NCBI RefSeq assembly: GCF_054482525.1
Contig: NZ_CM137006.1
Length of the DNA: 64,000 nt
Strand: one strand, 5' to 3'
In this document: positions 3,117 through 54,975 of the stretch, in pieces
Position numbering within the stretch: the stretch's first letter is position 1
Layout of the letters: every line of letters begins with the position of its first letter
Translations under genes and position numbers: made by a program
Notes under the pieces: generated by a model
Database searches by the model: none
Told to the model about the DNA's origin: nothing
Seen by the model: only the letters and a program-made list of their open reading frames with translations

Positions 3117-3665
3117 ATGCAGAATTTAAGTGGTTTCTCGGTACCGAAAGGGTTCCGGGGCGGCAACGCTATTAAAGTGCAATTGTGGTGGGCAGTACAG
3201 GCAACATTATTTGCCTGGTCGCCACAAGTATTGTATCGCTGGCGGGCATTTTTATTACTTTTATTCGGGGCAAAAATAGGAAAAAACGTAGTTATTCGTC
3301 CGTCAGTAAAAATTACCTATCCGTGGAAATTAACTTTAGGTGATTACGCGTGGGTCGGCGATGAGGTCAATTTATATACCCTCGGTGAAATAACCATTGG
3401 CGCACATTCGGTGATATCGCAAAAAAGTTATTTATGCACCGGGAGCCACGACCATGCAAGTCAACATTTCACCATTAACGCCACGCCTATTGTGATTGGC
3501 GAGAAATGCTGGCTGGCGACAGATGTTTTTGTTGCCCCTGGCGTCACGATCGGCGACGGCACCGTCGTGGGTGCACGAAGCAGTGTTTTTAAATCGCTTC
3601 CGGCAAATGTGGTTTGCCGGGGGAATCCCGCAGTGGTGATACGCGAACGCGTTGAAACTGAATAA
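3117..3665 (+). CDS. wcaF: Colanic acid biosynthesis acetyltransferase WcaF (hexapeptide-repeat)
   Basis: 182 aa; left-handed beta-helix acetyltransferase-like repeats (IGDGTVVGARS); synteny. Confidence 0.88.
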   Translation: MQNLSGFSVPKGFRGGNAIKVQLWWAVQATLFAWSPQVLYRWRAFLLLLFGAKIGKNVVIRPSVKITYPWKLTLGDYAWVGDEVNLYTLGEITIGAHSVISQKSYLCTGSHDHASQHFTINATPIVIGEKCWLATDVFVAPGVTIGDGTVVGARSSVFKSLPANVVCRGNPAVVIRERVETE

Positions 3666-3690
3666 ATTCAAAAATACAGAGGAATAAGAC

Positions 3691-4812
3691 ATGTCAAAAG
3701 TCGCTCTCATCACCGGTGTAACCGGACAAGACGGTTCTTACCTGGCAGAGTTTCTGCTGGAAAAAGGTTACGAGGTGCATGGTATTAAGCGTCGTGCATC
3801 GTCATTCAACACCGAGCGCGTGGATCACATTTATCAGGATCCGCACACCTGCAACCCGAAATTCCATCTGCATTATGGCGACCTGAGTGATACCTCCAAC
3901 CTGACGCGCATTTTGCGTGAAGTACAGCCGGATGAAGTGTACAACCTGGGTGCAATGAGCCACGTTGCAGTTTCTTTTGAGTCACCGGAATATACCGCAG
4001 ACGTTGATGCGATGGGTACGCTGCGCCTGCTGGAGGCGATCCGCTTCCTCGGTCTGGAAAAGAAAACCCGTTTCTATCAGGCTTCCACCTCTGAACTGTA
4101 CGGTCTGGTGCAGGAAATTCCGCAGAAAGAAACCACGCCGTTCTATCCACGCTCTCCGTATGCGGTCGCCAAACTGTATGCCTACTGGATCACCGTTAAC
4201 TACCGCGAATCCTACGGCATGTATGCCTGTAACGGTATTCTCTTCAACCATGAATCCCCGCGCCGCGGCGAAACCTTCGTTACCCGCAAAATCACCCGCG
4301 CAATCGCCAACATCGCTCAGGGGCTGGAGTCGTGCCTGTACCTCGGCAATATGGATTCCCTGCGCGACTGGGGCCATGCCAAAGACTACGTAAAAATGCA
4401 GTGGATGATGCTGCAACAGGAACAGCCGGAAGATTTCGTTATCGCGACCGGCGTTCAGTACTCCGTGCGTCAGTTCGTGGAAATGGCGGCAGCACAGCTG
4501 GGTATCAAACTGCGCTTTGAAGGCACGGGCGTTGAAGAGAAGGGCATTGTGGTTTCCGTCACCGGGCATGACGCGCCAGGCGTTAAACCGGGCGATGTGA
4601 TTATCGCCGTTGATCCGCGCTACTTCCGTCCGGCTGAAGTTGAAACGCTGCTCGGTGACCCGACCAAAGCGCACGAAAAACTGGGCTGGAAACCGGAAAT
4701 CACCCTCAGAGAGATGGTGTCTGAAATGGTGGCTAATGACCTCGAAGCGGCGAAAAAACACTCTCTGCTGAAATCTCACGGCTACGACGTGGCGATCGCG
4801 CTGGAGTCATAA
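3691..4812 (+). CDS. gmd: GDP-mannose 4,6-dehydratase (colanic acid copy)
   Basis: 373 aa; N-terminal Rossmann motif [12 protein letters not shown]; SDR-type YxxxK; followed by fcl. Confidence 0.95.
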
Positions 4813-46978: not shown

Positions 46979-48337
46979 ATGTCGCATAACGTTACTCCAA
47001 ACACCTCTCGCGTGGAATTGCGTAAAACGCTTACGTTAGTTCCGGTTGTAATGATGGGTCTTGCCTATATGCAGCCGATGACGCTGTTTGATACATTTGG
47101 TATCGTTTCAGGCCTCACGGATGGTCATGTGCCGACAGCCTATGCGTTCGCATTGATTGCGATCCTGTTTACGGCTCTGAGCTACGGGAAGCTGGTTCGC
47201 CGCTATCCTTCTGCTGGCTCTGCATACACTTACGCCCAGAAATCCATTAGCCCGACTGTCGGCTTTATGGTGGGTTGGTCTTCTCTGCTCGACTATCTGT
47301 TCGCGCCGATGATCAACATTCTACTGGCGAAAATCTATTTTGAAGCTCTGGTGCCTTCCATTCCATCGTGGATGTTTGTGGTGGCGCTGGTGGCCTTTAT
47401 GACCGCCTTTAACCTGCGTAGTCTGAAATCCGTAGCGAACTTCAACACTGTAATCGTCGTGTTGCAGGTAGTGCTGATCGCGGTGATTCTGGGCATGGTT
47501 GTTTATGGCGTATTTGAAGGCGAAGGCGCGGGTACGCTGGCGAGCACTCGTCCGTTCTGGTCTGGCGATGCGCATGTTATCCCGATGATTACCGGGGCGA
47601 CAATCCTGTGCTTCTCCTTTACCGGCTTTGACGGCATCAGCAACCTGTCGGAAGAAACCAAAGATGCAGAGCGCGTGATCCCGCGTGCGATTTTCCTGAC
47701 CGCGCTGATCGGCGGCATGATCTTCATCTTTGCAACTTACTTCCTGCAGCTGTACTTCCCGGATATCTCTCGCTTTAAAGATCCGGATGCGTCACAGCCT
47801 GAAATCATGCTGTATGTTGCGGGTAAAGCGTTCCAGGTTGGCGCGCTGATCTTCTCCACCATTACCGTACTGGCGTCCGGTATGGCGGCGCACGCAGGCG
47901 TAGCGCGTCTGATGTACGTAATGGGTCGTGACGGCGTATTCCCGAAAAGCTTCTTCGGTTATGTACACCCGAAATGGCGTACTCCGGCGATGAACATCAT
48001 CCTGGTTGGCGCGATTGCCTTGCTGGCAATCAACTTCGACCTGGTAATGGCTACGGCGCTGATTAACTTTGGTGCGCTGGTGGCGTTCACCTTTGTTAAC
48101 CTGTCGGTTATCTCGCAGTTCTGGATCCGTGAGAAGCGTAATAAGACGCTGAAAGATCACTTCCAGTATCTGTTCCTGCCGATGTGTGGTGCGCTGACTG
48201 TAGGTGCGCTGTGGGTTAATCTGGAAGAAAGCTCAATGGTTCTGGGTCTGATCTGGGCTGCTATTGGTCTGATTTACCTGGCTTGCGTCACCAAGAGCTT
48301 CCGTAACCCGGTTCCGCAGTACGAAGACGTTGCATAA
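46979..48337 (+). CDS. plaP: Putrescine importer PlaP (APC-family amino acid/polyamine permease)
   Basis: ORF 46973..48337; start at MSHNVTPN, 452 aa; 12-TM permease. Confidence 0.9.
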
Positions 48338-48380
48338 TCTTACAAGCCGGATGACATAATCATCCGGTAAATCTCAAAAA

Positions 48381-48407
48381 GCCGGAGTTTGTCGCTCCGG
48401 TTTTTTT
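48381..48407. terminator. Bidirectional terminator between convergent plaP and sbcB
   Basis: Hairpin gccggag...ctccgg flanked by A5 upstream and T7 downstream; a second inverted repeat ccggatga/tcatccgg lies just before it. Confidence 0.7.
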
Positions 48408-48410
48408 GTT

Positions 48411-49838
48411 TCAGACGATCTCTTCCGCGTACTGCCAAAGTGCTTTTAACAGCGCCACTTTCTCTTTGTCATCGGCATATTGTTGTGCCAGCATCTGCAA
48501 TTCATCTGCATAGCCCTGCAAAAACTCTGGCGTGAAGACCTGGCGGCGGTGCTCCAGCCAGCGTTGCTGCTCGGCATAATCCAGCGTCCCCGGGAAGTTG
48601 CGCGCCCGATAATTGAACAACAGCTTTTCAATCCGTTTATCAACAAAAGTGATATCCAGTGCCGGTAAATTACGCGGCTCGGTTTCCAGCACAATTTTCA
48701 TTGCTGCACGATCGGCGTCACTGAAAAAGCCATTATAAAGCTGTGCATCCACGTTATCTGAAGGCGTAAACGGTTCGGCTTCCGCGAATATCGCCACCAC
48801 TTTTTCACGCACTTGCGGATTTTCACGCAGAATTTTCAGGTTATCGAGGCAATGCTGACGATTAATTCCCAGTCGGTCGGCATCTTCCGGGCGTAGCGTA
48901 TTCGCCTGGGCCAGCACCGGACATTTATTGATATGCACCAGTTTAACCGGAACGGCGGCGTTATCGCCAAGATCGGCTTTTGCGGTATATAGACGCTCGC
49001 GCAATGTGTCGCTATCCAGTTCCAGTAATGGCGAAATGTCTCCTGCCAAATCCACCATAATTACGGCATTGCGATTTTCAGGATGCCACGCCAGCGGTGC
49101 CACCCAGCTTGTATTGCCGCGCCATGCCCCAAACATTCCGGAAACGTGAACCAGGGGTTTCATCTGCGGAACATCAATCAACGCCATCAGTTTGTGTTTA
49201 TTACGATGGGTAAAGAGATAATCAAACAGGCGTGGCTGACGCGTTTTTACCAGTTTTGCCATCGCAATAGTGGCGTACACATCAGCCATCGCATCGTGGG
49301 CGTTGCTATGTTCAATACCATTCGCTTTGGTTAAATGCTCAAGGCGAAAGCTCGGTAGACCGTCATCATTTTCAGGCCAGTTTATTCCTTCCGGGCGCAG
49401 GGCATAGCAGGCACGCATAACATCCAGTAAATCCCAGCGCGAGTTATCATGCTGCCAGCTCCAGGCGTAAGGATCGTAGAAATTACGATAAAAAACGTTG
49501 CGTGTGACTTCGTCGTCGAAACGCACATTGTTGTAGCCCAGAATACAGGTCTTCGGTACGGTAAAAAGCGAGTGAATACGGGCGGCAAATGCGGCTTCGT
49601 TTTCTCCTTTCGCCCGAGCTTCCTGCGGGGTAATACCGGTAATTAATACTGCTCCAGGCTGGGGTAAATAGTCATCCGCGGGCTTGCAGTAAAAGACTTC
49701 GGGTTCGCCGATGACATTGAATTCGTCATCGGTGCGAATGGCTGCGAACTGTGCAGGGCGATCTAACGCGGGGTGCGTGCCAAAGGTTTCGTAATCGTGA
49801 AACAAAAAGGTAGATTGTTGCTTACCGTCATTCATCAT
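48411..49838 (-). CDS. sbcB: Exodeoxyribonuclease I
   Basis: ORF 48411..49886; start at MMNDGKQQSTFLFHDYETFG (DEDDh exonuclease motif), 475 aa. Confidence 0.94.
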   Translation of the reverse strand: MMNDGKQQSTFLFHDYETFGTHPALDRPAQFAAIRTDDEFNVIGEPEVFYCKPADDYLPQPGAVLITGITPQEARAKGENEAAFAARIHSLFTVPKTCILGYNNVRFDDEVTRNVFYRNFYDPYAWSWQHDNSRWDLLDVMRACYALRPEGINWPENDDGLPSFRLEHLTKANGIEHSNAHDAMADVYATIAMAKLVKTRQPRLFDYLFTHRNKHKLMALIDVPQMKPLVHVSGMFGAWRGNTSWVAPLAWHPENRNAVIMVDLAGDISPLLELDSDTLRERLYTAKADLGDNAAVPVKLVHINKCPVLAQANTLRPEDADRLGINRQHCLDNLKILRENPQVREKVVAIFAEAEPFTPSDNVDAQLYNGFFSDADRAAMKIVLETEPRNLPALDITFVDKRIEKLLFNYRARNFPGTLDYAEQQRWLEHRRQVFTPEFLQGYADELQMLAQQYADDKEKVALLKALWQYAEEIV

Positions 49839-53661: not shown

Positions 53662-53934
53662 TTAGCGACAGCCTTCTTCTGTATGCAGCAAGGCAAAAAG
53701 TTCTGCAACTCCATTGTTATTAACCGCACTGGTTACTAACACATTGTGCGCTCCAGCTTCCCGTAACCAACTTTTCACCAAAGATATTTGTTCCATGCTG
53801 GCTAAATCTGCTTTGGTGACTACTCCAATAACAGGGCGATTCATTGACGAGGTAAAGCCTGGCGAAAAAGGGGACCACGGTGTGTCCGCATTAAGCACCA
53901 GGGCGATAATGTCTGCTTCGCAGGCGCTGACCAA
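53662..53934 (-). pseudogene. Fragment of an EutP/PduV-family GTPase (C-terminal part only)
   Basis: 90 aa ORF with G4-like TKADL and [13 protein letters not shown] segments but no P-loop; flanked by short ORFs without recognisable domains. Confidence 0.45.
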
Positions 53935-54429
53935 CAGAGCACTGTAGAGGCTGCGGTTTTATCTGTGAGGACTGGCAGCAAGATTTCCAGCCTCTTGACG
54001 GTGGGCCTGTGCAATCGTTATCAGATGCGTATAGCGATTATTCAGTGCTGCTATTGATAGCAGCTGAAAGCGAGATATCCGTACCAGAATGGCTCCCTCA
54101 TTCTGAGGGAACGACGGTAATTGTGATTGCAGAACACAATGCCCGTTTGCTGACTGGTCCGGCTGGTGGGGCTGTGGCATTGATCCATTATCTGAATGAA
54201 ATCTGTCATTCCAGAGAAACCGCTGTCAATGACGCATTTTGTCGGACGTTAACACGAGGAAGTCTGGCTATTCCGCAATGCCATCTTCTTTCGTAATGGA
54301 TTGAGAATGCTGGATTTTTAATTATATTACGCGCAGTATTAATCGCGTAAATGTTTTGCGGTCAGCAACGGTGGGGGATCCATTGTTCTGTTCAATGAAT
54401 ACCATCATACAATTGAATCAGGAGTCGGT

Positions 54430-54975
54430 ATGATGATTTTGGTGACGGGGGGCGCACGGAGCGGGAAAAGTCGCCACGCAGAGGCGCTTATTGGGGACTC
54501 TTCACAGGTTCTGTATATCGCCACCTCGCAAATCCTTGATGATGAGATGGCTGCACGGATAGAACATCATCGGCAAGGCCGCCCGGCGCACTGGCGCACG
54601 GTGGAGCGCTGGCAACATCTTGATGAATTAATTCATGCAGACATTAACCCGAATGAGGCTGTGTTGCTGGAATGCGTTACCACAATGGTGACTAATCTGT
54701 TGTTTGATTATGGCGGCGATAAAGACCCTGATGAATGGGATTATCAGGCGATGGAACAGGCGATTAATGCTGAGATTCAGTCGTTGATTGCTGCCTGCCA
54801 ACGTTGCCCCGCAAAGGTTGTATTAGTGACTAACGAAGTGGGAATGGGGATTGTGCCGGAGAGTCGTCTGGCACGACATTTTCGTGATATTGCCGGGCGG
54901 GTAAATCAGCAGTTGGCCGCTGCGGCAAATGAAGTATGGCTGGTGGTTTCGGGTATTGGAGTAAAAATCAAATGA
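54430..54975 (+). CDS. cobU: Adenosylcobinamide kinase / adenosylcobinamide-phosphate guanylyltransferase
   Basis: 181 aa; P-loop [12 protein letters not shown]. Confidence 0.94.

Follow-up and report, generated by a model that had tools for sequence, protein, structure and literature searches.

In the window analysed here, a 64-kb stretch of Escherichia coli DNA, the convergent genes plaP and sbcB are separated by only 73 bp, and the tsuAB pair (yeeE and yeeD) that lies between them in K-12 is missing. This tsuAB-less junction is an ordinary, common and inherited E. coli haplotype, which has been in the literature since 2011. As judged from sequence comparison, the absence of tsuAB is best read as the outcome of an old and repeatedly occurring loss rather than of the genes never having been acquired.

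The window matches E. coli strain 1190 (NZ_CP023386.1, a canine strain from Edinburgh) at 100% identity. The RefSeq annotation of that record gives the order yefM-yoeB, yeeZ, yeeY, yoeI and plaP; sbcB comes next, in opposite orientation, with dacD, sbmC and yeeA beyond it. NCBIfam matches for SbcB, DacD and SbmC were obtained in the window itself, and its PlaP protein equals K-12 PlaP at 100% identity (tblastn); an exact look-up of the PlaP protein returned K-12-type, tsuAB-carrying contexts only. The elements of the junction are located as follows.

46979–48337, + strand: plaP (yeeF), putrescine/proton symporter (annotation of the identical RefSeq record; tblastn)
48338–48410, no strand assigned: convergent plaP–sbcB spacer, 73 bp, tsuAB-less haplotype (sequence)
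48346–48368, + strand: hairpin 1, GCCGGATGA/CATAA/TCATCCGGT, 9-bp stem and 5-nt loop (sequence, fold)
48376–48407, no strand assigned: T1, predicted intrinsic terminator, A5-GCCGGAG-loop-CTCCGG-T7 (terminator scan, fold, K-12 homology)
48411–49838, − strand: sbcB, exodeoxyribonuclease I (NCBIfam NF008746, E = 4e-245; RefSeq annotation)

The plaP frame closes with TAA at 48335–48337 and that of sbcB with TGA at 48411–48413 (tca on the + strand); the interval between them is free of genes in the annotation of NZ_CP023386.1. A tblastn search with TsuA and TsuB over the 64-kb window gave no match (best E = 0.37). Likewise, a YeeE-family membrane gene (PF04143) and a TusA-like gene (PF01206) are both present in K-12-type contigs, and neither was found in the window. 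The preliminary description had reported the apparent absence of yeeE and yeeD as well as two hairpins within about 70 bp, and both observations are confirmed. It had also placed the two genes between plaP and sbcB in K-12 and proposed a comparison with that strain as a check. This gene order is correct: a K-12 derivative reads plaP → tsuA (yeeE) → tsuB (yeeD) → ← sbcB.

Aligned with the K-12 region b2014–b2011, the flanking genes of the window are 97.5–99.4% identical, and a T1 stem CCGGAG/CTCCGG with T7 is present in both. Conversely, K-12 carries about 1.46 kb of extra DNA, lacks hairpin 1, which is haplotype-specific, and ends sbcB with TAA. Its T1, positioned after plaP, reads AAA-CCGGAG-(16-nt loop)-CTCCGG-T7, i.e. 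a 16-nt loop and A3 before the stem, as compared to a 7-nt loop and A5G in the window. Past T1, K-12 continues with about 120 bp upstream of tsuA, the genes tsuA and tsuB, and a 42-bp spacer; this spacer contains a further hairpin, T2 (CCTCCGCCG...CGGCGGAGG), immediately ahead of the sbcB stop. The block missing relative to K-12 comprises the tsuA promoter region, tsuA (YeeE, thiosulfate channel), tsuB (YeeD, TusA-like sulfurtransferase) and T2. Among the loci listed, T2 (CCTCCGCC...GGCGGAGG) was found only where tsuAB is present. The difference in stop codons extends beyond this pair, as sbcB ends with TGA in all tsuAB-less Escherichia examined and with TAA in the tsuAB-carrying K-12 and PapM-36-2; the last four sbcB codons encode the same residues in both types.

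The spacer is strongly structured. Folding of the 73 bp gave −31.6 kcal/mol for the + strand (z = −6.8) and −26.0 kcal/mol for the − strand (z = −4.5), and none of 200 shuffled spacers folded equally well on either strand. Hairpin 1 contributes a fold of −13.7 kcal/mol (z = −5.6). Hairpin 2, GCCGGAG/TTTGTCG/CTCCGG at 48381–48400, is preceded by A5 at 48376–48380 and followed by T7 at 48401–48407. The terminator scan called a terminator-like site on the − strand (48400–48382). T1 was not called on the + strand, where the fold extends the stem to 13 bp; it probably escaped the scan due to A–T pairs that lengthen the stem into the T-run. The GC-rich stem is followed by a T-run on both strands (GCCGGAG...CTCCGG and T7 on the + strand, CCGGAG...CTCCGG and CTTTTT on the − strand), and T1 lies downstream of both stops, with the A-run beginning 38 nt past the plaP stop and the T-run 3 nt from the sbcB stop. 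T1 is homologous to the K-12 plaP terminator, and in almost every one of 65 listed loci, with or without tsuAB, plaP is followed by the CCGGAG/CTCCGG motif and its T-run. On these sequence criteria, hairpin 2 is assigned as the conserved, predicted terminator of plaP itself and not as a deletion scar. As an A-run precedes the stem and a T-run follows it, T1 most likely ends the transcripts of both plaP (+) and sbcB (−), acting as a bidirectional intrinsic terminator. Bidirectional intrinsic terminators of convergent genes likewise feature a GC-rich stem with A-run and T-run between the two stops; here, the assignment is a prediction.

The length of the A-run before T1 differs with the state of the locus. 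Its median is 6 in 44 tsuAB-less and 3 in 21 tsuAB-carrying loci (Mann–Whitney p = 3e-5, treating loci as independent and without correction for phylogeny). The regular expression used for the count misread five loci; correction by eye widens the gap for four of them and narrows it slightly for one (L070). The window itself has a run of 5 nt followed by G, whereas most other tsuAB-less species show longer runs (median 6, maximum 9). The comparison across the family represents a natural experiment on terminator design, with a longer A-run where the hairpin must also stop the convergent gene.

Hairpin 1 is conserved in Nissle 1917, S21, AVS0193 and E. whittamii, as seen in an alignment by eye. 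No further copy was found in the window when up to 3 mismatches were allowed, and a 101-bp junction query hit about one place per genome (1216 in 1214 genomes); an assignment as REP/BIME element was rejected on these grounds. Rfam 15 covariance models gave no match in 48200–48560 at E ≤ 1, and assignment as a known RNA was rejected as well. The weakest of our assignments is that hairpin 1 is perhaps a stem-loop in the plaP 3′ UTR that stabilises the 3′ end of the mRNA.

The distribution of the junction within the species was determined across 5426 complete E. coli genomes, with the following counts.

Direct plaP/sbcB junction: 1213 of 5426 genomes
plaP and sbcB apart: 4204 of 5426 genomes
Full-length tsuAB DNA: 4204 of 5426 genomes
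Any tsuAB DNA: 4209 of 5426 genomes
101-bp junction sequence at ≥90% identity: 1214 of 5426 genomes
IS200C at the junction: 432 of 5426 genomes

The 1214 genomes matched by the 101-bp query show 90–100% identity, and no tsuAB-carrying genome was hit at E ≤ 1e-3. The 4209 genomes with tsuAB DNA are a nearly exact complement of the junction genomes, and the tsuAB-less share of complete E. coli genomes amounts to about 22%. Carriers of the junction include Nissle 1917, ST131 strains and some small-genome animal isolates. Nissle 1917 and the ST131 strains EC958 and JJ1886, which belong to phylogroup B2, have the gene order of the window, a 73-bp spacer with both hairpins, and TGA as the sbcB stop. 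The Nissle spacer differs from that of the window at 2 positions, and the flanking genes of the phylogroup-B2 type differ by 1–3%. In EC958 (O25b:H4-ST131) and JJ1886, IS200C separates T1 from the sbcB stop (L084, about 3613–4320); the window is devoid of this element, the equivalent insertion point being 48410/48411. In O157:non-H7 E. coli, including H16 strains placed in phylogroup A, yeeD and yeeE have been reported to be missing beside yeeF, and in one strain an IS200-like element separated sbcB from yeeF (Iguchi et al. 2011, PLoS One 6:e23250, PMC3158064). The variant is therefore already known, albeit described there as part of work on the transfer of O-antigen clusters and likened to the present case by gene content. 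The tsuAB-less variant is probably carried along when the his/O-antigen region recombines.

Outside E. coli, the same spacer occurs in E. whittamii with 5 differences in 73 nt relative to the window (93% identity), while the flanking genes are 89–96.5% identical. Hairpin 1, T1 and the GTTTC before the sbcB stop are the markers common to members of this haplotype, and the window has all three. As E. whittamii shares the spacer, the tsuAB-less haplotype must be old, at least as old as the contact between both species. The spacers of the two haplotypes are also far more diverged than the flanking genes, with hairpin 1 present or absent and a T1 loop of 7 or 16 nt, which argues for an old age of both. 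This would be consistent with an ancestral or long-standing polymorphism, possibly with exchange by homologous recombination. It should be noted that E. whittamii is the sole source of evidence on the direction of change inside Escherichia.

These data bear directly on two simple explanations of the gap. That the deletion is recent and confined to this strain, or that the gap reflects an assembly error, would be suggested by nothing but the bare absence of the genes, and is refuted: 1214 independent complete genomes, as well as another species, share the identical junction, and the spacer has had time to gain polymorphisms and an IS200C insertion of its own. We regard this explanation as practically untenable. 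Relocation of tsuAB to another part of the genome has in its favour that 64 kb is the part directly examined, but full-length tsuAB and a separated plaP/sbcB pair are found in equal numbers of genomes (4204), the whole collection holds only 7 extra tsuAB places, one of them on a plasmid, and the window contains no TsuA or TsuB match. Relocation is thus very improbable, and from the population counts and the 64-kb window, genomes of this type appear to have no tsuAB at another site.

The state of the slot was further compared across the family by an SbcB scan with one genome per species, in which states were scored by tblastn. The 80 Enterobacteriaceae loci listed include no E. coli, and E. albertii, E. 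fergusonii, E. marmotae, E. ruysiae and Salmonella are likewise not among them.

plaP directly adjoining sbcB: 44 of 80 loci listed
tsuAB in the plaP–sbcB interval: 22 of 80 loci listed
Other cassette in the interval: 8 of 80 loci listed
Interval not scorable: 6 of 80 loci listed

One of the 22 tsuAB loci listed (L071) holds about 5.8 kb of extra DNA between sbcB and tsuB. The literature yielded nothing useful on the plaP–sbcB state of Salmonella; in S. Typhimurium LT2, sbcB may adjoin yeeF. Among the loci listed the states are structured by clade on the SbcB tree, and many transitions are needed to explain them. In the tsuAB-less loci listed, the spacer after T1 measures 5 to about 45 nt, the length varying by clade, which fits several independent events. 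Local alignment showed the first 10–20 nt after T1 to be homologous in both states. Alignment of the tsuAB-less loci to the tsuA-upstream and tsuB–sbcB spacers revealed no convincing cassette remnant after T1. The E. coli junction itself retains no legible deletion footprint or microhomology, as GTTTC (5 nt) is all that is left between the T1 T-run and the sbcB stop.

Other cassettes also occur in the slot. In Raoultella (L031, 8468–11129), an ArsR-family regulator and a 700-aa EF-G paralogue are located between plaP and sbcB. By annotation the same ArsR/EF-G pair is present in E. coli LZYWN_4 from swine (L097, 7720–10373), whose his-to-sbcB segment is of Klebsiella type and was presumably acquired by recombination; homologous exchange, therefore, does happen in this region. 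PlaP itself falls into two classes in the listed Enterobacteriaceae loci (L004–L082), with 96–100% or 86–90% amino-acid identity to the E. coli protein. Both classes occur inside single genera, e.g. Citrobacter and Enterobacter, and PlaP distances are unrelated to SbcB distances (r = 0.13). In Escherichia sp. MOD1-EC7003 (L003, 8426–8709) a different hairpin and then the end of a transposase gene follow downstream of sbcB, where the contig ends; no complete counterpart was found in E. coli genomes (best match 96.3%).

The preliminary description had left open whether the lineage never acquired tsuAB or lost it by a clean deletion. Our data favour loss, and to that extent its interpretation is supported: tsuAB occupies the exact site in 22 other Enterobacteriaceae species listed, and TsuA divergence follows SbcB divergence. 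Across the 20 listed tsuAB-carrying loci, the distances of the two proteins correlate with a Pearson r of 0.755, the Spearman coefficient being only 0.32. Among the loci listed, K-12 TsuA is closest to that of Citrobacter (0.08–0.10), as is SbcB (0.07), and the distance of E. coli TsuA to the remaining listed genera is 0.12–0.17. As TsuA divergence tracks that of SbcB, tsuAB would have occupied this position for roughly the lifetime of the genera. No recent donor of the E. coli genes is visible among the loci listed. A second, recent route to loss of TsuAB is seen in E. coli HH45 (L098, 5001–5853), where an independent internal deletion has removed all but 111 nt of tsuA and has truncated tsuB. 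Repeated loss is the favoured reading because of this deletion, the variable spacer lengths, the 22 species with tsuAB and the tracking of TsuA with SbcB.

The opposite polarity, in which the Escherichia ancestor had plaP against sbcB and other E. coli gained tsuAB by recombination through conserved flanks, is considered unlikely, albeit with several observations in its favour. Direct adjacency is the majority state among the species listed, the spacer is shared between E. whittamii and B2-type E. coli, LZYWN_4 attests to intergeneric replacement, and the PlaP classes are at odds with taxonomy. Parsimony barely discriminates, as the Citrobacter/Escherichia clade requires about three gains or about four losses on the SbcB tree. 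Still, E. coli TsuA is as distant from the other listed genera as SbcB is, with no recent donor in sight, and wherever it occurs in the listed genera, tsuAB sits at the identical site and shows the same T1/T2 arrangement, which is most simply understood if it was inherited. A further reading, which we hold to be rather improbable, is that both states, TsuAB present and TsuAB absent, have long been kept by selection across species. The polymorphism may span B2-type E. coli and E. whittamii, with several states also in Citrobacter and Kosakonia; loss may be adaptive and not neutral in some niches, host-associated extraintestinal lineages for example, with the A-run re-tuned when sbcB comes to abut T1.

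We consider it likely that loss, inheritance and recombination together account for the junction. The strain inherited its tsuAB-less allele, which did not arise in it. Most likely, a deletion far back in the Escherichia lineage, common to E. whittamii and phylogroup-B2-type E. coli, removed the block between T1 and the sbcB stop, and the allele would then have moved among lineages by homologous recombination at the his/O-antigen hot spot. With T2 gone, T1 would be left as the sole terminator-like element between the convergent genes, acting in both directions, as suggested by its sequence and the comparison among loci. The physiology agrees with a tolerated loss. In E. coli, thiosulfate-only growth is lost only if cysPUWA and yeeE are both deleted, and YeeE function requires YeeD (PMC11073785). 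Given this redundancy, a tsuAB-less strain with intact CysPUWA should show no obvious defect, which fits a loss that has been tolerated repeatedly. A strain without the TsuAB route would depend on CysPUWA for thiosulfate and sulfate, and the backup by CysPUWA would explain why loss of tsuAB recurs. For the strain at hand the finding matters little, the absence being standard in a large part of E. coli and visible in RefSeq annotation. With roughly 22% of complete genomes lacking it, tsuAB is an accessory trait of the species, and conclusions on thiosulfate drawn from K-12 are therefore not automatically valid for B2-type strains such as Nissle 1917 and ST131.

Differences between strains are not confined to the plaP–sbcB slot. 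Between dacD and sbmC, Nissle 1917 carries a ClbS/DfsB-family gene and an ISEc53 transposase (L083, 9087–10844), and the corresponding spacer of the window is plain. The tmaR–cobU interval of K-12 (L002, 11251–12538) holds CP4-44 prophage remnants (yeeW, cbtA and others); that of the window (53662–54430; L001, 11863–12631) contains only an EutP/PduV pseudogene and one hypothetical gene.
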